Shown here in pieces: positions 1-47,128 of a stretch of 47,128 bases of DNA. The notes below the pieces were generated by a model. That model did not search any database, was not told where the DNA came from, and saw only the letters and a program-made list of their open reading frames with translations. A program made the position numbers and the translations under genes. Location of the stretch: the NCBI GenBank assembly GCA_043800705.1, contig JAZDMS010000013.1, positions 1 to 47,128 on the forward strand, written 5' to 3'. Position 1 is the first letter of the stretch. Each line of letters starts with the position of its first letter. Source of the stretch: Candidatus Altiarchaeota archaeon. GTDB taxonomy: Archaea > Altiarchaeota > Altiarchaeia > IMC4 > SCGC-AAA252-I15.

Positions 1-503
1 TTGTTTTTGGGTTGTTGAAGACTTTTCGCAGGTGATAGGTCATTGTGGGTAGGGTGTGTAGTAGTCTGTTTCCGATTTTTCTCCTTGCTGGTTTCCAGCA
101 AGGTTCGACAGGGTTGAGTTCTGGGGCGTATTTTGGGAAGCGAAGTATTACGAGGGTTTTTGTATGTCTTGCTTTGAATCCCTCCAAGATTTTCCCTTTG
201 TGCCAGGGTGCGTTATCTACGAAGAGGCATACTCTTCCCCAGCGTTTCAGGAGTTTATCAAGGAATTTGACGTAGGTTCTCTGATTTGTCTTTGTGGAGA
301 ACTGTGCAACAAACGTTTTGGTGCTTCGCGCACCAAAGACGTGGATTCGATCGTATTTGTAGTCCAGTTTGGCGGTGGGTTGTGAGCCTTTCTTTGCCCA
401 ACCGCGCACTACTGTTGGTAGAAGTCCGAATGTGGCTTCGTCCTCTGCTGCAATCACGAATCCTTTCTTGCGCTGAGTTTTCGCCAATTGTGCAGCCTTT
501 TTT
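1..503 (-). CDS. IS630 transposase OrfB (DDE domain), reached by -1 frameshift, partial
   Basis: Manual translation of the -1 frame after TTT AAA AAA AG gives AEDEATFG...LFVDNAPWHK...FPKYAPELNPVEPCWK (DDE triad), open to the window edge. Confidence 0.88.
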
Positions 504-1005
504 TAAAATAGCGTATTTTCGCCTTATTTGGGGCTTGGTAGTTGCGTGGTCTCGGGGTTTGCAGGGAGAACCCTACCCCTATTAAAAGTTCCCAAACATG
601 TTGGTGCGCATATGATACGCCGTATTTTTTGCGGATGAGATCCTGGACTTCCTTTGTTGTCCACAGCCCGGAGGGGTTATTTGGCGGTCCTCTTTCGAGT
701 GTTCGCATGAGTTGTTTCTGTTGGGCTACTGTGAGGCGTGACGGTCTCCCATCTTGCTTGATGCTGTCCTTGCCTTCTATCCCTCTGTCCATGAAACGCC
801 GGAGAGTTTCATGGACTGTCCGGCGTTTCATTCGGGTTTTATCGACAATGTCGTCAAGACTTTTTCCTTCCTTGCGGTGTATGGCGCACAGAAGCCGTAT
901 TTTGGGCTTGACTTTAGGCTCGTTGTTGTACAATCCTCTAAGATGTCCGATACTCGTTTTGGGGAGGAAATCCTCCCCTTTCGGCAGACTCCACATAAAA
1001 CTCAC
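454..1005 (-). CDS. IS630 transposase OrfA (winged HTH domains)
   Basis: GRPSRLT, WTTKEVQDLIRKKYGVSY and GFSLQTPRP motifs typical of the IS630 N-terminus. Confidence 0.9.
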   Translation of the reverse strand: MSFMWSLPKGEDFLPKTSIGHLRGLYNNEPKVKPKIRLLCAIHRKEGKSLDDIVDKTRMKRRTVHETLRRFMDRGIEGKDSIKQDGRPSRLTVAQQKQLMRTLERGPPNNPSGLWTTKEVQDLIRKKYGVSYAHQHVWELLIGVGFSLQTPRPRNYQAPNKAKIRYFKKRLHNWRKLSARKDS

Positions 1006-1061
1006 CGAAACAATATAAGAATAGAAGAATAAAAGTTCAAAAATTAATCTGATGCACTATA

Positions 1062-1114
1062 AGAGGCTCCAGGTGCGGTTTTCTGAAAAACTGCGTTTAC
1101 CCATCATGTTATAT
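1062..1114 (+). repeat. attC-like site 1, right arm only (left arm interrupted by IS630)
   Basis: AACTGCGTTTACCCATCATGTTATAT matches the right arms at 1868-1893 and 2581-2606; GTT at 1108. Confidence 0.65.
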
Positions 1115-1164
1115 TCAATCGCGAGGGGGCAAATGATATTTTATCCCAAATCCATGTTTATTAT

Positions 1165-1698
1165 ATGCTTAAGATTTTTCAAAGAAGTAGGCCACTTATC
1201 GTTCATCTAGGCAATGTGGGCGAGATAGGCGATCCATCAACGATCCCAGATATTTTCCCCTGTAGGGAAACATTTAGACAGGCTAGAGCAGATCTGAAAT
1301 GTGATTTCTTGGGTATTGATTTGAAAGAGTTCCATGTTCATCCAGAAAACGCTAATTGGCGTCAAATCCAGGCAGATTTTATTGAAGGATTAGAAACAGG
1401 AGTTAAGGATAATGGAGCAGATGGCATAGATGCCCAGATGGCAGTAACATACCCTGGGATAGACAGAAAAAAGTTGTTTGATGTTATCCGAAGAAAACTT
1501 AAACCAGGTAAACAATTTACCTTTTCTGTGAGAGAAGAGTATACAGATTCTATTCAACAAGAACTACTAGCGGCAGGCTTTAGTCAAGGCAATATTACCA
1601 TTGAACCGTTCGAGGAAGCTGAGTATAGTAGAACTCAGGCAACTCAAAGGGCAAAAGCTGAGGGCGTAAATCTAATCGATGTGATTGCCAAAAAGTAA
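1165..1698 (+). CDS. Cassette ORF, degenerate class I SAM-dependent methyltransferase-like fold
   Basis: VHLGNVG / FLGIDL / IQADF / RKLKPGKQFTF follow the Rossmann MTase motif order; AT-richer than host genes. Confidence 0.55.
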   Translation: MLKIFQRSRPLIVHLGNVGEIGDPSTIPDIFPCRETFRQARADLKCDFLGIDLKEFHVHPENANWRQIQADFIEGLETGVKDNGADGIDAQMAVTYPGIDRKKLFDVIRRKLKPGKQFTFSVREEYTDSIQQELLAAGFSQGNITIEPFEEAEYSRTQATQRAKAEGVNLIDVIAKK

Positions 1699-1770
1699 AA
1701 GGATGAACTAAATGCGCCCCCTCGCGACTCTTCGTCGGCTTCGCCGCCTCGTCCTCGCTTCGCTCGGAGA

Positions 1771-1893
1771 ATATAACCCGTGGCTAAACGAGCGTATTCT
1801 GCCCCCTGCTGGGGGTTCTTTGCACCCCCAATTCCTGCCATAGTCACTAAATGACGCTCAATCCAGGAACTGCGTTTAGCCACCATGTTATGC
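1771..1893 (+). repeat. attC-like site 2 (123 bp)
   Basis: ATATAAC-CC-GTGGCTAAACG ... CGTTTAGCCAC-CAT-GTTATGC: AAC/GTT ends, 11-bp perfect inner arm, 2x3 internal loop. Confidence 0.8.
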
Positions 1894-1918
1894 GCAATTT
1901 CCGCAGGGAAATACTTCT

Positions 1919-2200
1919 TTAGATCTCTTGATAATCTTTTCCACGATGGAATATTAGAGTTACAAACACTTTCTTTTTTTCAATTCCATACACTGCCCTA
2001 TAATCTCCAACTCGTAGCCGATATGCATGGTCTCTATCCTTAGTGCCAGTCAGTTTTAGTATATCTGCTTTTGGTCGTGGAGTAAAAGGGTCGTCTTCCA
2101 ACTCGGATAATCCATTTTTTATTCTATCCCGTACGGGTTCGGGTAATTTATCGAGGTAAGCTCGAGCTTTTCGATGAACTAACACCTCGAAATTCATCAC
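1919..2200 (-). CDS. RelE/ParE family type II toxin
   Basis: YRLRVGDYRAVY and IFHRGKDY motifs; 93 aa; overlaps the antitoxin stop (GTGA). Confidence 0.92.
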   Translation of the reverse strand: MMNFEVLVHRKARAYLDKLPEPVRDRIKNGLSELEDDPFTPRPKADILKLTGTKDRDHAYRLRVGDYRAVYGIEKKKVFVTLIFHRGKDYQEI

Positions 2201-2388
2201 AAATCACTTAATGGTACGAATTGATCCTTCTCATTTAGCCTTTGATAATGAGTTTCCATAATTTGGGCATGGTCAGCTATTGTTAATAGCTTCCGTATTA
2301 ACATGTCGTAGCTTTCTCCCTTCGTGCCGTAAGATTTCAATATTTCCCTCGTTTCTTTGTGGACCGGAATCATCGCGTAGCTTGCCAT
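2197..2388 (-). CDS. Antitoxin (archaeal RHH-like), start reassigned to ATG 2388
   Basis: MASYAMIPVHKETREILKSYGTKGESYDMLIRKLL; 63 aa directly upstream of relE; sequence further upstream is an AT-rich promoter. Confidence 0.8.
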   Translation of the reverse strand: MASYAMIPVHKETREILKSYGTKGESYDMLIRKLLTIADHAQIMETHYQRLNEKDQFVPLSDL

Positions 2389-2411
2389 AGATATCCCATT
2401 AATTATAATGA

Positions 2412-2427
2412 TTATAACCGTTATAAA
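2412..2427 (-). promoter_or_regulatory. TATA box overlapping a palindromic operator of the TA operon
   Basis: TTATAAC-C-GTTATAA palindrome at 2412-2426; TTTATAA on the minus strand about 33 nt upstream of the antitoxin ATG. Confidence 0.55.
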
Positions 2428-2483
2428 TATTATAGTTTCCCTGCGCAAACTTCCTCGCTACGGCTCGGACCGCTGCGGCGGGC

Positions 2484-2606
2484 GTATAAAAGGCGGCTAA
2501 GCGGGCGTTCGTGGTTCCTTGCCGGGTACGCGGCGCCCCAAATTCCCGCCAAAAGGGGGTCATAGTCAGTCCTTCGCGGGAACTTCGCTTACCCGCGATG
2601 TTATCC
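2484..2606 (+). repeat. attC-like site 3 (123 bp; left core AAA instead of AAC)
   Basis: GTATAAA-AG-GCGGCTAAGCG ... CGCTTACCCGC-GAT-GTTATCC; same length and geometry as site 2; shares AATTCCYGCCA, CATAGTCA and GGAACT. Confidence 0.72.
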
Positions 2607-2663
2607 GACATGCCCGCCGAGCCTTTAACTTGATTAATATTTTCAGCCTTCTAGTCATTATTT

Positions 2664-3683
2664 ATGGCTGGACCCAGCCCAGGTGAAGTTCCACGCGAAG
2701 ACGGATTAAATCGTGATTTAGCGGGAAAAACTCCTCAGATGATGACTACCTTTGCCGAAGTGAGAAAAGGGTGGGGCGCCATCCATAAAGCTGGAATTCG
2801 TCTTTTAGCTTCCGACGGGAGCGAAAAAAATAGTGAGATAGCAGATACTATGATTGAGCCAAATGCTGATAAATTCAACCTTTTGATGAGGCAATTAGGC
2901 TGCGATGATCTCGTTATGACTCGTCTTATAGCTGATGCAGCAAAGGTTGCTAAACCAAGCGATTCGAATAGATATTCTGAGAGACTATTATATTTGGGGG
3001 GATTATTTGATGGGGCAAGGAGGATAGCTGTGAAAATTGGAAATGACCCGTATACTGGCTTACCTGAGCCTCAAAGATTAAAAATAGCCGGACATTTGTT
3101 CAGACCCCCTGAGGAAAGGACATTGACGTGGAATGAACGGGTTGGGATAATGTACCCAAAGATGGCTCTTGACGTATTGGATGGGACTTGTAACCCGGAG
3201 GAGATTTATGAGGTTAGTGGGAGAGGATTGGGCAGAATTGTTAGAACTGTCATTGAGGCAGGACCATTGAATCCATCCCCAAAAGGATTCGCAGTTGATG
3301 AGGCCTGGAAGGCCAAAGGCTGGGGGGATTTTGTGGATATGATGCCGATTCCCGAGGATCTGGAAGACATACGCAAAACACAAAAGGAAAAACGGCAATA
3401 CAAACCTCTTGAAAAGCATGAAGAATCCTTCAAAGGTTATTTACCCCACTATAATTGCCCGGAGGCAATTGAATACATTATACGGGACGTAGTCAACTAT
3501 ATGAGTACTGGACTTCCCCAAGAAAAAGAAGAACGGAATTTGGATAAAATCGTTGGTGAAGCGCTAAAAGTAATGCCTCATAGAAAAAGACTCGAGGAAC
3601 TAGACTATTTCCATGAGAAAAAGACTGAAGGAGAAAGACATAACATGCTCCAAAACATATTCGAAGGAAGGGCTTTATTCTAA
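2664..3683 (+). CDS. Hypothetical protein (cassette 3 cargo, 339 aa)
   Basis: Long AT-richer ORF with no recognised motif, framed by a 15-bp inverted repeat. Confidence 0.75.
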   Translation: MAGPSPGEVPREDGLNRDLAGKTPQMMTTFAEVRKGWGAIHKAGIRLLASDGSEKNSEIADTMIEPNADKFNLLMRQLGCDDLVMTRLIADAAKVAKPSDSNRYSERLLYLGGLFDGARRIAVKIGNDPYTGLPEPQRLKIAGHLFRPPEERTLTWNERVGIMYPKMALDVLDGTCNPEEIYEVSGRGLGRIVRTVIEAGPLNPSPKGFAVDEAWKAKGWGDFVDMMPIPEDLEDIRKTQKEKRQYKPLEKHEESFKGYLPHYNCPEAIEYIIRDVVNYMSTGLPQEKEERNLDKIVGEALKVMPHRKRLEELDYFHEKKTEGERHNMLQNIFEGRALF

Positions 3684-3835
3684 CAAAATTGCCGGCTCGG
3701 CGGGCATGCTCCTTCGCTTCGCTCAGTCGACCCATAAAATGTAAGCACACAGCAAAAAGAAAAAGTCCTAAGGAACGCGGCTAGACTGGGATTCTCTGTT
3801 GTTGGGGGGGTTCTGTATGTTCGTCTTTGTCTGAG

Positions 3836-3875
3836 GAAAAAACGCTGTTGGTAGGCGTTTTTTGAGGCGCCTACC
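3836..3875 (-). terminator. Hairpin/T-rich terminator region downstream of the thermosome gene
   Basis: GGTAGGCG...CGCCTACC and AAAAAACGC...GCGTTTTTT overlapping inverted repeats just past the stop codon. Confidence 0.4.
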
Positions 3876-3887
3876 GTATAGGGGTTT

Positions 3888-5534
3888 TTACATCATTCCG
3901 CCCATGCCGCCCATTCCTCCGGGTGGCATTCCTCCGGGTGGCATTCCTCCGCCGCCGGATTTTTTGGTGGCGATGACGTCGTCTATCCTCAGGATCATCT
4001 CCGCTGCCTCTGATGCGCTTTGTACTGCCTGGGTCTTGATCTTCAAGGGTTCGATGACGCCTTTTTTCCACATGTCTTCGACGGAGGCTTCTTCGACGTT
4101 GACTCCGTAGTCTTGTCCGTTTTTGGTCTCGTGCTTCTGCCGGAGTTTCACGAGGGTGTCGATGGCGTCCATGCCTGCGGATTCGGCCAACGTCCGGGGT
4201 ATTATTTCGATGGCGTCTGCGAAGGCGTTGACTGCGAGTTGTTCGCGGCCGCCCACTGAGTCCGCGTATTTCCTTAGTTTCTGTGCGACTTCGGCTTCTG
4301 GTGCGCCGCCGCCTGCCATTATGTAGCCGACTTCGACCGCGGCTGCGACGCCTCCGAGGGCGTCGTTGAGTGCGCGTTCTACTTCGTCGATGACGTGTTC
4401 GGTGCCGCCGCGTACGAAGATGCTGACTGCTTTGGGGTTCTTGCATCCGCGGACGAATGTCATCTGGTCGCCTGCGACTTTGATTTCTTCGACGAGTTTG
4501 GCCTGGCCTAGGTCGTCTTTGCTTAGGTCTTTTAGGTTGGTTATTATCTTGGCGCCTGTGGCTTTGGCCATCTTTTCCATGTCGGATTTTTTGACCCTTC
4601 TTGCGGCGAATATGCCGGCTTTGTTGAGGAAGTGCTGTGCGAGGTCGTCTATGCCTTTCTGGCAGAAGAGGACGTTGGCGCCTGTGGCTGTGACGGAGTC
4701 GACCATCTGTTTGAGCATCTTCTCTTCCTGTGCTACGAAGGCTTCCAGCTGTTGCGGGCTTGTGATGGATATCTCGGCGTCTGTTTCGGTCTCTTTGACT
4801 TCGATGGCGACGTCGAGGAGCACTATCTTGGCGTTTTCGACCTTTTTGGGCATGCCGGAGTGTGAGCGTTCCTTGTCGATTATGATGCCTTCGATGAGTT
4901 CTGTGTCTTCGATGCTGCCGCCTTTCTTCTTTTCGACCTGGATGTTGTCGAGGTCTACGTCGACGCCTTCTTCGAGGGCTGCGACCTGCTTGACGGCTTT
5001 GACTGTCAGCTTTGCTAGCTTGTTTTTGTGCGATTCGACGCCTTTGCCTGTCATCGAGGTGATGGCTATCTCCTCGAGTAGCTTGGTGTCTTCGAGCGTT
5101 ACCTTCTTTGATGTCTCCTTCAGTATCTCCTGGGTCTTGTCCGCTGCAAGCTTGTATCCGCGCGCTATCAGCGTCGGGTGTATGCCCTGGTCGAGGAGTC
5201 CTTCGGCTTTCGCCAGGAGTTCGCCGACGAGTATTACTGCGGTCGTCGTTCCGTCTCCGACTTCCTTGTCCTGCGTCTTGGCTACTTCGATGACCATCTT
5301 CGCCGCGGGGTGTTCGACGTTCATCTCCTCGACGATTGTGGCTCCGTCGTTTGTGATGACGATGTCTCCTAGGTCGTCTACGAGCATCTTGTCCATTCCG
5401 CGCGGTCCGAGTGTGCTTCTTACGGCCTCTGCGACGGCTTTTGCCGCCATGATGTTGTTTCGTTGGGCGTCTCTGCCTGTGGTCCTTAGCGCCCCTTCGG
5501 GCAGTATAAATATCTGCGGTTGCTGTTGTGCCAT
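3888..5534 (-). CDS. ths: Thermosome subunit (group II chaperonin)
   Basis: [24 protein letters not shown] motifs; C-terminal GGMPP repeats; SD GAGGTGA. Confidence 0.98.
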
Positions 5535-5609
5535 GCTGTCATCACCTCAAAAATGAGATATTCTATAGGTTTGTTTGTGTATAAAAGTGGTTTTTCCCTT
5601 TATCCTATC

Positions 5610-6548
5610 GTGGAGCGTGAGGTTGGGGGTTCGGAGCGCCGTGGCGGTCGTGAGTTTTCTTGGATTGCGCCGTGGAAACTCTTTTTTGGTAGGGAAAGAA
5701 CTGAGCCTGCTGATTTGGCCTGTTCTGAGGGATTGGTTTCCGCTGTGGGGGCGCTGACTCAGGGGAAGGATGCGTCGGAGTGTAGGGGTGTTTCCTTTGA
5801 TTTGGCAAGGCATCTTTTAAGCGATCATTGGGGGCACGCTTTCAGCTATAGGATTTCGGAGGGCATGTTTAATATCAACCATTTGGTCGGCTGTTATCAG
5901 AGGGTGATGAGGGTCTATGGGGAGGCGTTGGTTATCGCATCCGCATTCGATGAGTCCTATAAGAGGTTTATGCGGCCTTCGGTTTATGATCCCAGGGAGT
6001 ATTTCAACGACGGCCGGAGGAATATGAACCGTTTGGCTGGTTTTTTTAGGAGCGAAGGGACTGTGTCGGCTTTTGTTGAGGCTTTTAAGTCCGAGCCCAA
6101 GGGTAGCGAGCCGTGGTTCGTCGACAGCCAGTTTGCGATTTTGGATGTGATAGATGGTGTCGAGTTCAGGGATTCCAGTATCCTAGCCGGCGTAGTCTCT
6201 GAGATGAAGAGGATGAGGGTCCAGTCAAGTGAGTGGAACAGACTTGTTTGTGCAAGGTTCGATAGGGTGGTGTCTAACCTGGGTGAGAGGGGTGTTGTGG
6301 GCGGGAAAACGTCTGCGGAGAGGTTGGTGGAGGAGTTTGAGGGCTCACGGGAGCTCAGGCCTGAGAGGACGAGGCTCTATAAGACTGTGAGTAAGGTCAG
6401 GAGGAGGGGTTATGGGATTGTCGACCTTGGGGCGGGCCCTGACCCCATTGACCTGGCGGAAGGATTTAAGTTTGGGTCTGAGGAGTATTGGAGGGTCCTT
6501 AATGCCGGATTGCGGAAGACAAGGATCGACTATAGGAGGGGGTATTGA
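5610..6548 (+). CDS. Hypothetical protein (likely GTG start 5610)
   Basis: Long ORF filling the ths-hsp20 gap; TATAAAA about 25 nt upstream of the GTG. Confidence 0.6.
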   Translation: MEREVGGSERRGGREFSWIAPWKLFFGRERTEPADLACSEGLVSAVGALTQGKDASECRGVSFDLARHLLSDHWGHAFSYRISEGMFNINHLVGCYQRVMRVYGEALVIASAFDESYKRFMRPSVYDPREYFNDGRRNMNRLAGFFRSEGTVSAFVEAFKSEPKGSEPWFVDSQFAILDVIDGVEFRDSSILAGVVSEMKRMRVQSSEWNRLVCARFDRVVSNLGERGVVGGKTSAERLVEEFEGSRELRPERTRLYKTVSKVRRRGYGIVDLGAGPDPIDLAEGFKFGSEEYWRVLNAGLRKTRIDYRRGY

Positions 6549-6555
6549 TCCGGTT

Positions 6556-7026
6556 TTACTGTATTTGTACTCGTCTTCCTGCGGGTGCGTCGTCGGCCCT
6601 TTTGAGGGTGACTTCGAGGACTCCGTTGTTGTATTTCGCTATGGCGGTTTCGGGCTTTACCTTAGCGGAGAGCCTGACGTCTTTGACGAATTTCCTGAAT
6701 GGTGTGTCGACTTTGATGTAGACGCTTTCGGGGGTGGTGCGCAGGTCGATGTCCTCTTTGCCGATGCCCGGGAGCTCTATGACGACGGCGACGGAGTCGT
6801 ATTTTTCGATGACGTCGGTGACGGGTTCCATGTATCCTGCGATGCCGAAGGGGGATACGTTGCCGAACTCTTCGGCCACCGGCCGTCCTTCTCCCGTGAA
6901 TCTCATGGTGAATCCGTAGACGAGGGGCGCCTGGTATTCCTGGCATCGGCCCTTCGACCTTGCCTCTTCGAACATCTGGCGTATCTTTGCGTGTATCTCC
7001 GAGAAGTCCCCCCCGTAGTCTATCAT
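6556..7026 (-). CDS. Small heat shock protein Hsp20
   Basis: ELPGIGKEDI, AKYNNGVLEVTL and a C-terminal VQI motif; archaeal PLVYGFTM..GRPV..EFGNV N-terminus. Confidence 0.95.
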   Translation of the reverse strand: MIDYGGDFSEIHAKIRQMFEEARSKGRCQEYQAPLVYGFTMRFTGEGRPVAEEFGNVSPFGIAGYMEPVTDVIEKYDSVAVVIELPGIGKEDIDLRTTPESVYIKVDTPFRKFVKDVRLSAKVKPETAIAKYNNGVLEVTLKRADDAPAGRRVQIQ

Positions 7027-7036
7027 CGTTTATGTA

Positions 7037-7942
7037 TTAGTCGGATAGCAATTTAAAAAGCTCCTTTGCTGTCTTTACCTGGGCCAGCTCCTCGGGGGTG
7101 AGGACGTTGACGTCGCTTTCGACCTTTCTTTCGCTTATGCAGACGGTGTATCCGTCGACTATGGCGGATATCTCCTCTAGGACGGTCAGTTTGTCGTGTA
7201 GGCGGCGCCAGTCGTTGGATACTACGCTGAAGACCCGCTCGTGGAGGCTTGCGACCAGGTCAAAGGGTGCGTTTGTGATGGAGGTGTGGAAGCCCATGTC
7301 GTCGAATTCGCGGCGGACCGTCCGTTTGAGTGAGGTTGCGGCTGTCATCCCGTCCTGCGATTCTTCGCATGATCCGTGCTGGGGGGCGTAGTCCCTGTCT
7401 GCAAGTTCGTTCCCGAAGAGCTTCTCAAGGCGTTCGAAGACGTCTAGGCTTACGCGGCCGTTGTGTTCGTACCTGTATACGGACTGCTTGGTTACGCCTA
7501 AGGTTTCGGCTAGGGTGTCCTGGGTGAGGCCCATCCGCCGGCGTGCGTGGGTCAGTTTTTTCTGGCTTATGTGGACGCAGTAGTTTCCGCGGGTCGAGTA
7601 GACGTTCGGGGGGGTGTCGTTGACGAGTTTCGAGAAGGTTGGGATGTTGGAGACGGAGACGCCGTATCTGTCATAGACGGTGCCGTCTGTGAGTTCGGAG
7701 TTCTTCATGCGCTGGGAAAGGACGTAGGGTATTCCTCCGAGGATGGCGGATACCGCCTTGAGCTGTACGACGCTTTCCCTGCTGAGGCCTTCGACGTTGG
7801 CGAGTGTCTTTATGAGGTATAGTGTTTCGTCCCTCTTGGCGAGGATGTCGAAGCTGCTCCTTGATCCGCGGCAGTCGACTACCTTGTATCCCGACTCGAG
7901 GAGTATGCGGACTGCCGAGTCCACCAGCGCCGATTTTAGCAT
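7037..7942 (-). CDS. Archaeal HTH transcriptional regulator (COG1395-like)
   Basis: SFDILAKR..IK, YSTRGNYCVHI and a cro-like HTH (GLTQDTLAETLGVTKQSVYRYE). Confidence 0.88.
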   Translation of the reverse strand: MLKSALVDSAVRILLESGYKVVDCRGSRSSFDILAKRDETLYLIKTLANVEGLSRESVVQLKAVSAILGGIPYVLSQRMKNSELTDGTVYDRYGVSVSNIPTFSKLVNDTPPNVYSTRGNYCVHISQKKLTHARRRMGLTQDTLAETLGVTKQSVYRYEHNGRVSLDVFERLEKLFGNELADRDYAPQHGSCEESQDGMTAATSLKRTVRREFDDMGFHTSITNAPFDLVASLHERVFSVVSNDWRRLHDKLTVLEEISAIVDGYTVCISERKVESDVNVLTPEELAQVKTAKELFKLLSD

Positions 7943-9342
7943 GTTTTTGTCTTGTTTATGAACCGGTCGTGTATGGCCTTTACGACCTTTGGCACGTCCT
8001 TTGAGTTGATGACGAAGGCTATGTTAAGTTCGCTTGAGCCCTGTGCTATCATGATGATGTTGGCGTCGCATTCGGCGACGGTGTTGAAGACCTTGGCCGC
8101 GATCCCCTTCGTCCCGTGCATTCCAGCCCCTACGACGGTTATGGTGGATATGTCCTGCATCACGGATATGGATCTGGCTATGGTCGATGGGAGCCTGCCT
8201 TCCAGGAGCTCCATGGTCTTGTCCAGGTCGGTCTCGGAGACTATGAAGCTGAGGTTGCTTTCCGAGGATCCGGATATCATGGGGACGTTGATGTTGGATT
8301 CCCCGAGGGTCGACAGGACCCTTCCGACGATGTTGGGGGTGTCCGCCAGGCCGACGCCTTCGATGTTGATGATGGCTATGTTCTTCGCTATCGCGACGGC
8401 CTTTATTATGTGGTCGACCTTCTTCTGTTTCTTTACGATGAGGGTGCCTTTGCAGCCGGGGTTGAATGTGTTCTTCACCCAGACGGGGATGCTGGAGAGC
8501 ATGGCAGGCTCGATCATCTTGCTGTGTATGACCTTTGCGCCGTAGTATGCGAGGTCCATGGCTTCGGCGTAGGACAGGGTGGGTATGAGCTCGGCTTCGG
8601 GGACGATTTTCGGGTCGGTGGTTAGTATCCCGTCGACGTCGGTCCATATTTGGACCTCGTCCGCGTCCAGGTATTTCCCGAGGAGCGATGCGGTGTAGTC
8701 TGAGCCTCCGCGGCCTAGGGTGGTGATCCTCGCCTTTTCGTCGCCTGCGATGAATCCTGCGACGACGGGAACGGTCTTCGGCAGGAGCTTCTTGAACGTT
8801 TCGCTGACCTGTTTCTGGGATTTCATGTGCAGTGGGCGCGCCCTGCCGAACGAGGAGTCTGTGATTATTCCGGCCTCGAATCCGGTGAGTGCGACGGATT
8901 TGACCCCGATGGAGTTCAGTGCGCCTGCCATGACGAGTATGTTGAGCCGTTCGCCGAAGGACATTATGAAGTCGAGGCTCCTTGCGCTGAGGTCTTCGAG
9001 GTAGCCTACGCCAAGGAGCGCGACCCGGAGGTTTTCTATGAGATTGAGCGATTGGCTCAACAGCTCGCCGCGGAGCTTCTTGTCCGTTACGGCGACCATT
9101 ATAGCCTTTCGCTGCTGCATCGTGAGCTCCCTGCAGAAGTTGTCGACCTCGCGCTCTACGACGCTGTTCGGCAGGTCTACGACGGATTTTGCCGTGTTGA
9201 TGAGGCGGTCGGTGACTCCGGAAATCGCCGAGACCACTACGACCTTGGAGGGGTTCTTCTCAGCCTGCACAAGCTTCGCTACGTTGACTATTCTTTCCCC
9301 GTTGGCGACTGATGTGCCGCCGAACTTCATCACTACGGCCAT
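7936..9342 (-). CDS. lysC: Aspartate kinase (start at MAVVMKFGGTS)
   Basis: KFGGTS, TLGRGGSDYTA, WTDVDG and two ACT domains. Confidence 0.96.
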   Translation of the reverse strand: MAVVMKFGGTSVANGERIVNVAKLVQAEKNPSKVVVVSAISGVTDRLINTAKSVVDLPNSVVEREVDNFCRELTMQQRKAIMVAVTDKKLRGELLSQSLNLIENLRVALLGVGYLEDLSARSLDFIMSFGERLNILVMAGALNSIGVKSVALTGFEAGIITDSSFGRARPLHMKSQKQVSETFKKLLPKTVPVVAGFIAGDEKARITTLGRGGSDYTASLLGKYLDADEVQIWTDVDGILTTDPKIVPEAELIPTLSYAEAMDLAYYGAKVIHSKMIEPAMLSSIPVWVKNTFNPGCKGTLIVKKQKKVDHIIKAVAIAKNIAIINIEGVGLADTPNIVGRVLSTLGESNINVPMISGSSESNLSFIVSETDLDKTMELLEGRLPSTIARSISVMQDISTITVVGAGMHGTKGIAAKVFNTVAECDANIIMIAQGSSELNIAFVINSKDVPKVVKAIHDRFINKTKTC

Positions 9343-9528
9343 GATACAAAGAATATGTAGAAAGAGTATAAAAAGGGCGGTTATCGGGCTTTTCAAAGGC
9401 ATCTGATTTTTTATTAGGTAGGTCGTGATTAGTCTAACATGCAAGGGAAGAGACCCGCCAAATCGGCTGGGAAGGCGCTCACTGTAAGTGTAGGGCGTCA
9501 TGGCGCCGGTCATCGTGGGAGGGCCCCT

Positions 9529-10998
9529 GTGAAGCGGATGAGGTTCGACTGGGGGAAGCTGGCTTCAGAGGCCGTTTTGGCGTTGATGTTCCTGGCGTAT
9601 ATGACCGTGTTCTGTTGTATCGTCTTCAGCGAGCAGAACGCGTTCTGGTACGGCAACTTCGACCTCGGGATCATCGATCAGGGTATTTGGCTCATTTCCA
9701 GGTTCGAGCCGCCGTTCATGACGACGAGGGGGCTTCACATCTTCGGGGACCATGCGGGGTTCATCAACCTGCTTGTTGCTCCCGTCTTCTGGGTCTGGGA
9801 TGACACGAAGGCGCTGCTTGTTGCGCACACGTTCGCGTTCGCCTCCGGCGTGGTCCCCGTCTACCTGATCGCGAGGCGGAGGTTTGAAAGCAGTTGGGTC
9901 CCGCTTGTCTTCTCCTTTGCATATATTCTTTTTCCCGCAATCCATTTCGGCAACCTCGACAGCGGATACCACGCCGAGTCGTGGACTGTGCCGCTCATAC
10001 TCTTCAGCTACCTGTTCCTTGTCCAGGGGAGGCTCCGCCTCTATTTCGCGTCCGTCTTCCTCGCCTTGACCTGCAAGGAGGACGTCTTCGCCGCCATTTT
10101 CCTTTTTGGCTTATACGTTGCAATCAAGCACAATTTGAGAGTCGGCCTGGCGTCTTCGGTGATGGCGTTGGCATACATGCTCGTGGTCACGGGAGTGCTC
10201 ATGCCTTATTTCAATGACAGGGGGGCCTTTTATGTGAGCCGGACCTTCGGTTCCTTCGGGGATACGCCGATTGAGATGCTCTCGAGTGCGACGAACGCCT
10301 CTTTCATGGCAGGCAGGCTCGACAACGGAGTCAACAGGGAATATGTGAGGGGGCTTTTCGCACCGACCGGGTATCTCGTGGTCCTTGAGCCGTTGGCTGT
10401 CGCGTCGTCTGCGACCCTTTGGGTGAATCTGCTGCAGGATTGGGGCTACGCCCACGACATAAGGTACCATTATTCGACGCCGATCATCCCGTTCATCTTT
10501 ATCGCATTGATTGAGGGCCTGTTCAGGTTCAGAAAAAGGAGGCTTGTCTTGGCCGTTATTCTGGCTTATCTTGCCGTCTCGTCGGTCTACAGCAACTATT
10601 ATTACGGCCCCGACCAGTCGAGCCTTAGGAACGTCGGGAGGATCGTCGACACTATCAGGACGTGCGACGAGGTCCCTTTCATGCAGGCGCAGGTACGGAG
10701 CATGATCGGGACGATCCCGGAGGATGCCTCGGTCTCGTCCACATACAACCTTATCCCGCAGATGTCGCACAGGAGGAGGGTTTACATGTTCCCGAACCCG
10801 TTTAGGGTGAGCCTCTTCGGGATAGACGACGGGGGAATACCCCAGGACAACTATACGGACTATGTGATCCTCGACAGGGTCCTTGTATACGACGAGGAGG
10901 ACAGGTTTCAGACGGCAAGCAGGCTCGTTGGCGAATGGAACTATACTCTGGTGGGCTCGGCTGGCACCGTGGACCTCTACAGACGTCATTTGCGATGA
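9529..10998 (+). CDS. DUF2079-type polytopic membrane protein (probable GT-C-like)
   Basis: FDLGIIDQ, HIFGDH, LTCKED, DIRYHYS and PQMSHR motifs; GGAGG 6 nt before GTG 9529. Confidence 0.8.
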   Translation: MKRMRFDWGKLASEAVLALMFLAYMTVFCCIVFSEQNAFWYGNFDLGIIDQGIWLISRFEPPFMTTRGLHIFGDHAGFINLLVAPVFWVWDDTKALLVAHTFAFASGVVPVYLIARRRFESSWVPLVFSFAYILFPAIHFGNLDSGYHAESWTVPLILFSYLFLVQGRLRLYFASVFLALTCKEDVFAAIFLFGLYVAIKHNLRVGLASSVMALAYMLVVTGVLMPYFNDRGAFYVSRTFGSFGDTPIEMLSSATNASFMAGRLDNGVNREYVRGLFAPTGYLVVLEPLAVASSATLWVNLLQDWGYAHDIRYHYSTPIIPFIFIALIEGLFRFRKRRLVLAVILAYLAVSSVYSNYYYGPDQSSLRNVGRIVDTIRTCDEVPFMQAQVRSMIGTIPEDASVSSTYNLIPQMSHRRRVYMFPNPFRVSLFGIDDGGIPQDNYTDYVILDRVLVYDEEDRFQTASRLVGEWNYTLVGSAGTVDLYRRHLR

Positions 10999-11092
10999 GG
11001 GAATACCGCACTGTTGCAGCGAGATGACAACAGATGGCCCTTCATGCAAATAAATCCCCGCATAATGCCCCGCAGCTCTACTGCGGGGATAT

Positions 11093-11572
11093 TTATTTGA
11101 CGCAGTAGTCGAGGCCTTTGACGCACCTGCCGACGTTGTTGCATGGGCGGTCTATCCTGTTGGAGGCGTGGCCGACGCATGAGGCCTCAGGGGTTCCCGG
11201 ATTCCTGCACGTGAACGAGGTGGTTTGGATGAGTATGCTGTTGTCCTGGTCGCAGGTGTAGGTGACGGAATTTTCAGGGCAGTCGGCCATCGTGACGCAT
11301 TTGCCTAGGAAGAGGGTGGTGGATGTGGTCGTGGATGTGGTCGAGGACGTGGTCGTCGACGTGTCCGTCGTGGTCGTCGACGTGGATTCGGTGGACGTTG
11401 TTGTGCTCGAGGACGTGGTTGTCGTGGTCGTGGGGCTGAATATTCTGCTTATACCCGAGGAGAGGTTGTCTAGGCCCCGCAGTACGGCGTCGAGGAAGCA
11501 GATGCCGGTGTAGTCGTAGGCGCATACTGTGGATGCCATGACCATGATCAATACGGCAGCGGACGCTTTCAT
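11093..11572 (-). CDS. Secreted Thr/Ser-rich, Cys-rich protein
   Basis: Signal peptide MKASAAVLIMV..., poly-T/S stalk, Cys-rich C-terminus. Confidence 0.75.
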   Translation of the reverse strand: MKASAAVLIMVMASTVCAYDYTGICFLDAVLRGLDNLSSGISRIFSPTTTTTTSSSTTTSTESTSTTTTDTSTTTSSTTSTTTSTTLFLGKCVTMADCPENSVTYTCDQDNSILIQTTSFTCRNPGTPEASCVGHASNRIDRPCNNVGRCVKGLDYCVK

Positions 11573-11622
11573 CGTAGAAGATAATGGAGGGATTAATAAT
11601 ATATCAGGCGAAATACTTAGCA

Positions 11623-12522
11623 ATGCTCGAGACGCTGGTCGTCGGGGCCTGCCTGGCCGTTTTGGCGGCAGCCGCCTGGATCGACTTGAAGACGGGGGAG
11701 GTGCCGGAGTGGTGCAGTCTCGGCATTGCGATGATCGTCGGGGCGCCGTGTCTGGCATGTGCCGCGTATTTCTGGGACTTGGGCTACGTTTTCACGCCCG
11801 CCTTGTGGGGTGCCGTCGCCTTTGCGGTCGCGTATGTGGTATTCTATTTAGGCCAGTGGGGCGGCGGCGACGTGAAGCTCCTTGGTGGGATCGGCGGGCT
11901 TCTGGGGTTCCTTGACGCCGGGGGGTATTCGTGGCCGAACGACACGTTCATGTATGCTTCGATTCCGCCTCTTTTGACGTATGCCGTCAATATGGCGCTT
12001 CTTGCAGGGCCGTATGTGATCCTTTACACGCTCTTGCTGGGTCTTGGGCAGCCGAGGGTCTTCCCGGCCTTCCTGGAGAGGTTCCGCGGGCGCAGGACGC
12101 TTTTTGCGTTCGCCTTCAGCATTATTCCGCTCGTTTTCGCGGTCTACTACGGGGTCTTTGTCCTTGCATGGGTTTATGCCCTTGTGCCGCTGATGGTTGT
12201 GGCCCAGTCGTATATGAAGACGGTTGAGGAGACGCTGATGACGAAGACCATAAAAGTCTCGGAGCTGAAGGAGTGGGACATCATCGCCGAAGACGCCGTC
12301 GTGGACGGCAAAGCGGTCGCCCCCAAGGGCAACATCGAGGGTATCACGCCGGAGCAGCTTGCGGTATTGAAGGCGTACAGCCTGGGGGGTAAGTTCAAGG
12401 ACACCATCAAGACGAAGTGGGGGGTAAAGTTTGTCCCGGTCCTGTTCCTTAGCCTTCCGGCAACGATCTACGCAGGCAACCTCCTGGAGCTGGTTTTCGC
12501 CATACTCTTCCAGGACCATTAG
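11623..12522 (+). CDS. A24 prepilin/preflagellin peptidase (FlaK/PibD/EppA-like)
   Basis: WIDLKTGEVP, WGGGDVKLL and C-terminal KFVPVLF motifs; multiple TM segments. Confidence 0.9.
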   Translation: MLETLVVGACLAVLAAAAWIDLKTGEVPEWCSLGIAMIVGAPCLACAAYFWDLGYVFTPALWGAVAFAVAYVVFYLGQWGGGDVKLLGGIGGLLGFLDAGGYSWPNDTFMYASIPPLLTYAVNMALLAGPYVILYTLLLGLGQPRVFPAFLERFRGRRTLFAFAFSIIPLVFAVYYGVFVLAWVYALVPLMVVAQSYMKTVEETLMTKTIKVSELKEWDIIAEDAVVDGKAVAPKGNIEGITPEQLAVLKAYSLGGKFKDTIKTKWGVKFVPVLFLSLPATIYAGNLLELVFAILFQDH

Positions 12523-23518: not shown

Positions 23519-24331
23519 ATGTTGGATAGAAAAATCGGCTTATTGTCGTTATTGTTCGCAATTTCCCTCGTGCCCCAGGTCTCCGCCGCCAGGATACAGA
23601 TGGGCGTAAGCCTGGTCCCAGAGGATAACATATCCTCCGAATCGTTCACCATGGACCTGACGATACTGAACTCCGGGGATGAGGCTGCGCGAGAGGTCAC
23701 TGTCTCCCTCCTTCTGCCTGGCGGATTTTCCGCAGATGACATCTACGCAGGGACGATGGAACCCGGCAGGCCGTTTCACGGAACGTTCGAGGTCCGGGTC
23801 CCGGGTTCCGTGAATCCCGGACTGTATCCGGTCGTCTTGAAGACGCATTACACCGATGCGAACGCATATCCCTTTTCGACTGTCTCCCCCAGCTTCATTA
23901 AATACAGGTCGTCTGCTCCGGTCATGACGAGGGGGCGGATCGGCAACCTTACGCTCGCGGGGCAGGGCGAGAAAAACCTCCTTGTGGAGTTCGACAACCT
24001 CGACGAGAAGCCACACAGCGTGCTGATCACCGTAAGAATCCCCGACGAGATAAAGGCACGGGAATACTCTAAACATGTGTCGATAGGCGCGAAGGAGACT
24101 GGAGAGGCCTCGTTTCCCTTGAAATCGTTCGGTGCGCTGCCGGGTTCGATATACTACGTTTTTGCCCAGGCGGAATATGACGACGGAGGACTGCATTACA
24201 GCTCGATCGCGCAAGGGAGAGTGGATATAGTCAGCGAAGAGGAAAGGGGGTTGGAGGCCCCCCCATGGCTGTTTGCGGCGGTATTGGCGCTTCTTATCAT
24301 CGCAGCCGCGTATATGCAGGTAAGGAAATGA
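23519..24331 (+). CDS. Surface protein with Ig-like (CARDB/COG1361-like) domains and C-terminal TM anchor
   Basis: Signal peptide, NSGDEAAREV, PGLYPVVL, C-terminal TM plus basic tail. Confidence 0.75.
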   Translation: MLDRKIGLLSLLFAISLVPQVSAARIQMGVSLVPEDNISSESFTMDLTILNSGDEAAREVTVSLLLPGGFSADDIYAGTMEPGRPFHGTFEVRVPGSVNPGLYPVVLKTHYTDANAYPFSTVSPSFIKYRSSAPVMTRGRIGNLTLAGQGEKNLLVEFDNLDEKPHSVLITVRIPDEIKAREYSKHVSIGAKETGEASFPLKSFGALPGSIYYVFAQAEYDDGGLHYSSIAQGRVDIVSEEERGLEAPPWLFAAVLALLIIAAAYMQVRK

Positions 24332-46664: not shown

Positions 46665-47128
46665 AAGATGCCAGACTATGATGGCGATTAGTATTGGTGG
46701 ACTGAACACCTCGCCGAAGCTTGGTGCGTACATCCCCAACCTATCAAACCACTCTTTTAGTGGAACCTATGCTGTCTATTTTTGAGGGCGGTTTCGGGCT
46801 TAGATGCTTTCAGCCTTTACCCGCGAGCGGCGTAGCTACCCGGCGATGCCCTGTCGGACAACCGGTAGACCAGAGGCCACGGGCCCATGTTCCTCTCGTA
46901 CTAATGGATCCTTTCTCTCAGACAACCACAATTCCAGCAGATGCCGCCAAACTGTCTCGCGACGTTCTAAACCCAACTCACGTACCGCTTTAATGGGCGA
47001 ACAACCCCACCCTTGGCTGCTTCTGCACAGCCAGGATGCAGTGAGTCGACAGCGAAGTAGCAAGCAGCGGGGTCGATGTGTACTCTTACCCGCTACCACT
47101 CAGTTATCCCCGGGGTAGCTTTTCCATC
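46665..47128 (-). rRNA. rrl: 23S rRNA, 3' portion (partial)
   Basis: Reverse complement of conserved domain V/VI: AAAGCTACCCCGGGGATAAC, TCGCCCATTAAAGCGGTACGTGAGTTGGGTTTAGAACGTCG, sarcin-ricin loop AGTACGAGAGGAAC, GCTGAAAGCATCTAAG. The 3' end coordinate is approximate. Confidence 0.97.

Follow-up and report, generated by a model that had tools for sequence, protein, structure and literature searches.

An integron-like gene-cassette array in a Candidatus Altiarchaeota genome and its probable XerA-type tyrosine recombinase

The first 47 kb of contig C37 (JAZDMS010000013.1) from a Candidatus Altiarchaeota genome (GCA_043800705.1, hereafter G000; 2.0 Mb, 43 contigs, 87.6% complete), a stretch of 47,128 nucleotides referred to below as the window, carry at positions 1061-3800 three cargo units of low GC content, separated by two full attC-like sites and flanked by two site remnants (Table 1). 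The contig starts inside an IS630-family insertion sequence (IS), and an archaeal 23S rRNA gene is represented by its 3' end at 46668-47128 on the minus strand (447 bits), which places the array on an archaeal contig; no tRNA gene was detected across the 47 kb. GC content is 0.38-0.46 in the cargo stretches versus 0.52-0.60 in the flank beyond 3750. This contrast, the reading of the sequence and the repeat family formed by the sites bear out the initial annotation of this DNA, which had described three AT-richer cargo units between homologous imperfect palindromes. We interpret the locus as the tail of a chromosomal integron-type array that is probably served by a XerA-type tyrosine recombinase devoid of the insertion found in integron integrases (IntI).

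Table 1. Features of the window array and its flanks, and further array loci of the same genome (window coordinates unless a contig is given).
Feature	Position	Strand	Details
IS630-family insertion sequence	1-1060	-	transposase open reading frames (ORFs) 454-1005 and 2-487; Pfam DDE_3 and helix-turn-helix (HTH), NCBIfam transpos_IS630
Site 0 remnant (3' part of attC-like site)	1061-1116	+	L' 1094-1104; 3-nt spacer; R' GTTATATTC 1108-1116
Cassette 1	1109-1887	+	ORF 1165-1698, 177 aa; C/T-rich spacer 1728-1768; closed by site 1
attC-like site 1	1769-1895	+	R'' 1769-1777; L'' 1780-1790; two inner hairpins; L' 1873-1883; R' 1887-1895
Cassette 2 (inverted toxin-antitoxin pair)	1888-2600	+	toxin 1919-2200 (-); small upstream ORF 2197-2448 (-); closed by site 2
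attC-like site 2	2482-2608	+	match to covariance model R1
Cassette 3	2601-3735	+	ORF 2664-3683, 339 aa; C/T-rich spacer; R''-like 3727-3735
IS110-family right-end remnant, between R'' and L'' of site 3	3734-3776	+	92% identity (3734-3783) to an IS110-family element in the C35 array
Site 3 remnant (L'' arm and first centre bases; 3' half missing)	3777-~3798	+	aligns with left halves of sites 1 and 2
Group II chaperonin gene (chromosomal flank outside the element)	3888-5534	-	Pfam Cpn60_TCP1 2.8e-181; GC 0.53-0.59
Second array	C35:70526-76421	opposite orientation	four full sites; two IS110-family elements
Third locus	start of C21		one cassette

All sites share one layout, in which an outer box (R'') ending in ATAAC, or in ATAAA in site 2, is followed by 2 nt, an 11-nt arm (L''), a centre of ~80 nt, the complementary arm (L'), 3 nt and a second outer box (R') with GTTAT. 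With 7-nt R boxes, both full sites measure 123 nt (1771-1893 and 2484-2606), and the geometry initially described, from AAC/AAA, 2 nt and an 11-nt arm to an 11-nt arm, 3 nt and GTT, is retained, with 11/11 arm pairs in site 1 and 10/11 in site 2. Only the right part of the first site is present, as had been noted; it aligns with the 3' halves of sites 1 and 2, and a repeat search gathers the three 3' ends in a single family (1089-1119, 1868-1898 and 2581-2611; 84% and 68% identity). This family extends to a second array on contig C35, one site of which (73033-73159) is ~90% like site 2. The six full sites of both arrays align at 76% column identity and yield an RNAalifold consensus with a three-way junction, in which compensatory changes occur at 12 of the 32 pairs. 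From the same six sites we derived a covariance model (R1, a global model), which recovered exactly these six from the genome, all in the two multi-cassette arrays on C37 and C35, at 115-132 bits and on a single strand only. In the window, site 1 scored 115 bits on the plus strand and 11 bits on the minus strand, and site 2 scored 130 and 14 bits, respectively; the partial sites 0 and 3 gave no match with this global model. The DNA fold of site 1 had z-scores of -3.8 (plus) and -3.3 (minus). Furthermore, strict GTTAT-N4...N4-ATAAC pairs within 5 kb occur 16 times in the 2.0-Mb genome, five of them in the ~8.6 kb of arrays; a generic hairpin scan and a loose 8-mer pair scan returned mostly noise (205 loose pairs), and the strict form alone was used. 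Given the one-strand R1 scores and the concentration of strict pairs in the arrays, the site family and its polarity exceed chance.

The two ends of a cassette are complementary to each other, as the initial annotation had pointed out in the window, and both of its counts hold: GTTATATTC (1108) and GAATATAAC (1769) match at nine of nine positions for cassette 1, and GTTATGCGC (1887) and GCGTATAAA (2482) at seven of nine for cassette 2. Over the arrays on C37 and C35, start and end agree at 9/9 in five of six cassettes, the sixth being cassette 2 of the window; the single cassette on C21 reaches 8/9, and the end and start of cassette 3 agree at 5/9. Full 9/9 pairs were also found on contigs L041 (two), L048 (three), L025 (one) and L146 (two). 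Within one site, the R'' and R' boxes as they stand match at 6-8 of 9 positions, except in the last C35 site. Circular cassettes were then mimicked by script, and their own starts were folded against non-cognate ones: the cognate junction folded best in four of the five cassettes tested (-84.3 versus -68.1 or weaker for cassette 1; -86.6 versus -79.0, -100.9 versus -93.6 and -82.3 versus -73.6 for the others). A crossover within the invariant ATGTTAT at the 3' end of the site would make the last bases of each site part of the next cassette.

Beyond this genome, R1 detected 30 further sites in nine of 40 related genomes, and a 13-kb contig (G015:C63) is occupied by an array throughout. Further copies thus flank variable genes elsewhere, and gene order differs in relatives, in line with the initial annotation. 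The flanks proved too diverged for nucleotide synteny with same-genus genomes, so a protein-level comparison was used: in two relatives of the same genus (G004 and G002), the stop side of the chaperonin orthologue is directly adjoined by homologues of window genes 11096-12504 and the cassettes are absent there, which identifies the cassettes as an insertion in this lineage. Five sequencing runs gave matches, with 5-7% of words each, and four of them were compared as contigs. Contigs of three other runs (freshwater and sediment metagenomes) contain pieces of the toxin-antitoxin cassette 2 that carry 0-2 differences; in run X2 the site 2 stretch 2493-2608 is flanked by other DNA on both sides, and in a contig from another sample the end of cassette 2 is joined to a site with a different centre. 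Contigs of the four runs did not cover cassettes 1 and 3 or the chromosomal flank, a small share from which absence does not follow. They revealed no excision joint either, which contigs would in any case be unable to display. These metagenome contigs show modularity, not movement.

Such observations leave little room for the idea that the units are immobile, the sites being palindromic intergenic repeats, comparable to repetitive extragenic palindromes or miniature inverted-repeat transposable elements, or structured RNAs between resident genes, which we regard as hardly credible. The covariation would suit an RNA as well as single-stranded DNA, and the sites stand behind most ORFs in sense orientation. 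However, the complementarity runs per cassette and not per site, the toxin-antitoxin cassette is inverted relative to its own site, the cargo is of low GC and absent in relatives, an identical site has different neighbours in other samples, and the six full R1 sites of the genome are confined to multi-cassette arrays. In addition, a search of window positions 1-4200 against Rfam gave no family, with one chance-level match (isrN, E 0.98).

As attC arrays go, R''-L''...L'-R' palindromes lie in the same orientation and less than 4 kb apart (two full and two partial ones in the window, four on C35), with a spacing of 0.6-1.8 kb. The sites lack the features by which classical attCs are usually defined, i.e. 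extrahelical L-box bases and an R-L spacer of ~5 nt: their L-box stems pair at 11/11 or with mismatches and without bulge, which agrees with the L'' arm free of extrahelical bases reported initially, and the R-L spacer measures 2 nt on one side versus 3 nt on the other. No recombinase gene was found in window positions 1-8000, and Pfam matches over C35:70001-77500 were limited to IS110 transposases, a response regulator and DUF6485. Provided that the sites count as attCs, the locus is a cluster of attC sites lacking integron integrases (CALIN), which requires at least two attC sites and no integrase nearby. The IntI model TIGR02249 scored above its cut-off in none of 41 genomes (this genome and 40 relatives). 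This absence, together with an array cut at both ends, supports the view first put forward, namely an intI-less array or the tail of an integron with a divergent attC family.

The genome encodes a single tyrosine recombinase (C17:175-993), the only match to PF00589. The protein scores 172.5 bits against the XerA model NF040815 (cut-off 220) and 168.2 bits against TIGR02249 (cut-off 265), the latter match being split in two pieces; its best match in the Protein Data Bank is the XerA of Pyrococcus abyssi, over a single stretch (26-263), and it is 57% identical to a Methermicoccus protein. Over the stretch that takes up 77 residues in VchIntIA, the protein counts 32, and it thus lacks the IntI additional domain. 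The sole PF00589 gene therefore does not make a complete integron by the IntI criterion. The initial annotation had advised looking for a tyrosine recombinase with the IntI insertion: a candidate recombinase does exist, and its gene heads arrays in related DNA, but it is XerA-like and without the IntI insertion.

The 174 nt upstream of the recombinase gene hold a short site. It runs from an R''-like TTTAAC and a 3-nt gap to an 11-nt arm, whose inverted copy comes after a short loop, and ~13 nt further on to a third arm. The same three-arm layout, with other arm letters, precedes the homologues in G024, G028, G037, G026, G008 and G023 and in five DHVE2-labelled metagenome-assembled genomes (MAGs). 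Short sites ending in GTTAT also head the arrays on C35 and C21, where no recombinase gene adjoins them. Found both upstream of Xer-type genes and at array heads, the short site ending in GTTAT or GTTAA occupies a putative attI-like position. The cores of the short sites on C17, C35, C21 and L048 contain, as read from the letters, inverted CGNNTAA half-sites 6 nt apart. According to a review of archaeal tyrosine recombinases and to Cortez et al., dif sites have 11-bp arms and a 6-bp spacer. The part of the short site next to the cassettes, if taken as a duplex, has this dif geometry. The full sites repeat this half-site: their 3' halves read half-site, 8 nt, TTAT, with CG.TTA and ATGTTAT as invariant columns, and the 5' halves are the mirror image with 7 nt. 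Given this half-site in the 3' half and its mirror image in the 5' half, the folded site would resemble, in our own reading, a dif-like core with a bulged centre.

Several observations complete the description of these head regions. Just behind the C35 short site, where a recombinase would be expected, lies a small Cys-rich DUF6485 gene (C35:76432-76677; L026 6432-6677), and the ~30 nt behind this short site still align with the 5' leader of recombinase genes (alignment A3). Joining C17 to an array contig was attempted, and no other contig end matches the start of C17.

The order recombinase gene, short site and array is found in related DNA. The strongest linkage is provided by L146, a 7-kb metagenome contig encoding a recombinase 71% identical to the C17 protein: a short site stands directly upstream of the gene, with the same arms as its counterparts on C35 and C21 (80% column identity across the 123 columns of A3), and four R1 sites (86, 84, 60 and 38 bits) lie within 2.8 kb, in an array whose GC of 0.38-0.44 gives way to 0.52-0.59 beyond. 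On L048, a 511-kb contig labelled Pacearchaeota (recombinase at 36% identity), four R1 sites are located upstream of the gene, and two are found in the same position on L153. The 117-kb DHVE2 contig L041 carries a pair of cassettes, 2.7 and 2.9 kb long, and the short site anchors the first of them, while G037 (L025) has one cassette anchored at the short site together with an R1 match. In the one-contig genome G026, a short ORF-less unit follows the short site, then a masked N stretch; on L147 and L148 the short site and GTTA(T/A) are followed by the contig end. At the ten closest archaeal genome loci, the distance from the gene upstream to the contig end is at most 1,056 nt in eight and at most 222 nt in six, a distribution that we count as supporting since contig ends near the gene would be an assembly effect of hypervariable repeat arrays.

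ORF-less mini-cassettes directly follow the short site on L048 (9815-9985, 171 nt) and L022 (5771-5905, ~135 nt), and consist only of an outer repeat, a C/T-rich spacer and R boxes. On L022 (G026:C1), masked N stretches at 115-220 and 6030-6129 fall exactly where a site would be expected after ATAAC, beside the recombinase locus.

This linkage bears on a second explanation, in which the window array would be an ordinary CALIN remnant, with divergent attCs recombined by a canonical IntI that is encoded in the unassembled 12% of the genome or acts in trans, and with the Xer-like gene as a bystander. Its architecture does follow the cassette rule of integrons, and the genome is 87.6% complete. 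According to PMC9668308, archaeal arrays are mostly CALINs and IntI1 recombined eight of nine archaeal attCs tested. We nevertheless consider this explanation quite improbable: IntI is undetected in all 41 genomes of the group, the array-head gene is of Xer type on L146, L048, L041 and L025 and in G026, and the array-head short site is conserved along with the Xer-type gene. Moreover, the IntI domain reportedly reads extrahelical bases, and the sites have none for it to read.

The dif-like geometry raises a third explanation, whose sole difference from our preferred one is whether the enzyme is dedicated. The short site would then be the chromosomal dif, lying next to the gene as in XerS/difSL, and the cassettes would be small integrative elements; by folding two inverted dif-like halves into a hairpin, they would hijack the housekeeping XerA in the manner of CTX phage. 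The recombinase does look like a typical XerA, two CGNNTAA half-sites in inverted orientation flank a 6-nt gap in the short-site core, and each site has two inverted copies of the motif half-site, 7/8 nt, half-site, ~80 nt apart. By contrast, one dif per chromosome is expected of a Xer/dif system, whereas three short sites occur in this one genome (C17, C35 and C21), and a second Xer-like gene of G026 stands apart from arrays. No PF00589 gene was found in nine of 12 same-family and four of four same-genus genomes, and the recombinase has a homologue in only 12 of 42 genomes of the phylum sample; such a patchy presence speaks against a purely housekeeping role, an argument weakened by incomplete assemblies. 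On balance, exploitation of a housekeeping enzyme seems possible but unlikely.

Under the explanation that we prefer and regard as likely, an integron-type array with a XerA-type enzyme that may be dedicated to it, a cassette would consist of a cargo gene or toxin-antitoxin pair with a polar recombination site ~125 nt long behind it. When single-stranded, this site would fold so that a 2x3-nt bulge parts the R box from an 11-bp L box, with two hairpins further in. Cassettes would enter as circles, with a crossover inside ATGTTAT, and the reaction would be catalysed by a XerA-type tyrosine recombinase whose gene stands at the array head beside the short three-arm site. The single-stranded substrate, the crossover point and the role of this recombinase are what we infer from sequence.

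Several points weigh against this scheme. Excision, circles and catalysis are themselves predictions. The recombinase gene is located off the array contigs, on a contig that ends 174 nt upstream of the ORF, and the arm letters of its short site differ from those of the C35 and C21 head sites, which adjoin no recombinase gene. Its product falls within the broad archaeal XerA family, with 1717 of the 8000 scored candidates related to it at E<=1e-30, and may be a housekeeping Xer with a dif site beside its gene. With a genome 87.6% complete, an IntI could be unassembled. The missing attC features described above, with R-L spacers of 2/3 nt and no extrahelical L-box base, also count here. Among the folded circular junctions, the fifth cassette shows a tie, without preference for its own start; in the G015:C63 array, 9/9 is reached in only one of four inner cassettes, and one site is 9/9 with itself. 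No array was found upstream of the homologues on L149 and L150 (53-54% identical), on G021:C11 or at the second G026 gene, and the contigs of the sequencing runs carry only 5-7% of words.

Extended to other archaea, the same reasoning leads to a broader proposal, to which we give about even chances: that most archaeal 'integrase-less' arrays are served by a XerA-type recombinase encoded at the array head beside a dif-like site. They would constitute a Xer-based integron acting on folded hairpins without the IntI domain, as an ancestral form of the integron or an independent invention. According to Ghaly et al. 2022 (PMC9668308), 75 archaeal MAGs contained 539 attCs and six IntIs, all said to carry the IntI domain, and missing integrases were ascribed to fragmented assemblies. 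Smyshlyaev et al. describe the insertion as 'not fully conserved' in the integron-like subgroup. In the literature covered, which was partial, we found no work linking attC arrays to XerA. Should a Xer-type enzyme invisible to the standard IntI detector operate these arrays, the census of 'complete' archaeal integrons would change, and the apparent lack of integrase in most archaeal arrays may be explained. In addition, the long-assumed descent of integron integrases from Xer-like enzymes would gain a living intermediate that is testable at the bench, and the roles of the IntI domain and of the extrahelical bases would be open to comparison with a system having neither.

Compared with archaeal integrons and CALINs and with sedentary chromosomal integrons, the array shares tandem one-ORF cassettes, polar imperfect palindromes with R'', L'', L' and R', 3' site bases that belong to the next cassette, and a cargo mostly of no known function with toxin-antitoxin cassettes, some of them inverted. 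The recombinase gene is likewise transcribed away from the insertion site at the array head. Unlike these systems, it has a recombinase without the IntI additional domain, an ATAAC/GTTAT R box, an R-L spacing of 2/3 nt, an L box without extrahelical base, a branched three-way centre, cassette-specific outer inverted repeats, a C/T-rich spacer and several head sites per genome. The array therefore matches published archaeal integrons and CALINs in layout and cassette rule, and departs from them in the IntI domain and in the extrahelical bases and 5-nt spacer of the usual definition.

Other Xer-related systems provide partial analogies. CTX-type phages are integrative mobile elements exploiting Xer (IMEX) that XerCD inserts at dif. 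Their substrate is single-stranded and folded: two dif-like halves in inverted orientation, separated by ~80-90 nt, pair into a duplex core whose centre is imperfect. These phages would resemble the present array in their Xer-type enzyme, here predicted, and in their folded substrate of two inverted dif-like halves, and differ from it in that single-gene cassettes are here stacked in arrays instead of phage genomes, in an archaeal host with one Xer. In pdif modules of Acinetobacter plasmids, cargo also lies between Xer-type sites; those are plain 28-bp duplex sites in alternating orientation, whereas the present sites are all direct, ~125 nt long and structured. XerS/difSL and XerH/difH likewise have the recombinase gene right beside its own site, but those sites resolve chromosome dimers and form no cassette arrays; XerS is named as a single-recombinase system in PMC2958812. 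Overall, the array would work most like an integron, with an enzyme and core sites resembling Xer/dif and a folded substrate comparable to the CTX hairpin.

Insertion sequences have shaped both ends of the window array. Copies of 922-1060, 100% identical, open contigs C28 and C11, which fixes the end of the IS630-family element at 1060, where it cuts site 0. The missing half of this site was sought beside the left end of the element; that end was found on C1 only, where it adjoins tandem repeats and no site, and the head of the window array is thus absent from the assembly. At the other side, the initial annotation ended the array at 3735; it has to be extended across an IS110-family remnant into the left arm of a fourth site. 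A contig of metagenome run X2 covers 3734-3794, with IS-like DNA before and a normal attC centre after, and its likeness to the window stops at 3794. Considering the IS110 right-end match, the left arm of the site behind it and the continuation of the X2 contig into a normal centre, site 3 was therefore invaded by an IS110-family element, and later lost its 3' half along with most of that element. The window array is the tail, or distal end, with its head side cut by IS630 at the contig start and its last site truncated beside the chaperonin gene.

The two IS110-family elements of the C35 array encode a DEDD transposase with PF01548 and PF02371 (Transposase_20), and the elements on C35 and C21 are inserted at the same point, 2 nt after ATAAC, with a 15-nt subterminal inverted repeat. 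DEDD transposase, subterminal repeats and fixed target point, as expected of the IS110 family, are thus all present. In bacterial integrons, the IS1111-attC group of this family combines a DEDD transposase and subterminal inverted repeats with insertion at a fixed point of the cassette site. The archaeal elements are alike in their insertion at one fixed site point, in two independent cases plus the window remnant, and differ in host and in site family, their target choice being deduced from two junctions.

Inside the R boxes, each cassette is bordered by its own outer inverted repeats: 1119-1130/1716-1727 (12/12) in cassette 1, 1898-1911/2436-2449 (13/14) in cassette 2 and 2609-2623/3694-3708 (15/15) in cassette 3. 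A C/T-rich spacer of 18-41 nt with CTTCGCT-like words parts the 3' outer repeat from R'', and its words recur in arrays of distant relatives. The proteins of cassettes 1 (177 aa) and 3 (339 aa) belong to no Pfam, NCBIfam or PADLOC family. The toxin of cassette 2 is of ParE/RelE type (Pfam ParE_toxin 3.8e-08), and a DUF7557 match remained below cut-off. The C35 cassettes encode a response-regulator receiver protein and family-less proteins; among eight cargo proteins, PADLOC returned nothing but a weak SduA-domain match in the response-regulator protein. The array also provides a clean example of horizontally acquired cargo, toxin-antitoxin cassettes included, in a little-studied archaeal phylum. 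On L146, two ParE-type toxin-antitoxin cassettes (3221-3690, plus strand; 2428-2945, minus strand) were also observed; similarly to the window, one of these cassettes runs opposite to the other cargo ORFs.

A/T-rich TATA-like words (TTTTATCC and TTAATATTT, in window stretches 1130-1165 and 2625-2664) precede cassette ORFs 1 and 3 by ~23-30 nt, and cassettes may consequently have their own promoters and leaderless mRNAs, unlike the promoterless cassettes of bacteria.

Beyond the array, the gene order round the chaperonin (window 3888-12504) is unlike that of G004:C129 and G002:C109, which places a rearrangement breakpoint at the tail of the array. The IS630 transposase is split in two overlapping ORFs, an HTH part and a DDE part, consistent with a mutational or programmed frameshift; in the genome, this element has at least three right-flank junctions (C37, C28 and C11) and one assembled left end (C1). 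Directly beside that left end, at ~180-500 of C1, lie long tandem arrays, TTTTCGGTTCTCGG-like and then AAACTGGAAACTG-like on the opposite strand. Finally, contig C41 carries a repeated palindromic element starting with TTTATCCGATAAAGCGCA in a low-GC stretch (4090-4180, 4463 and 23918-24022), which by eye is unrelated to the R1 family.

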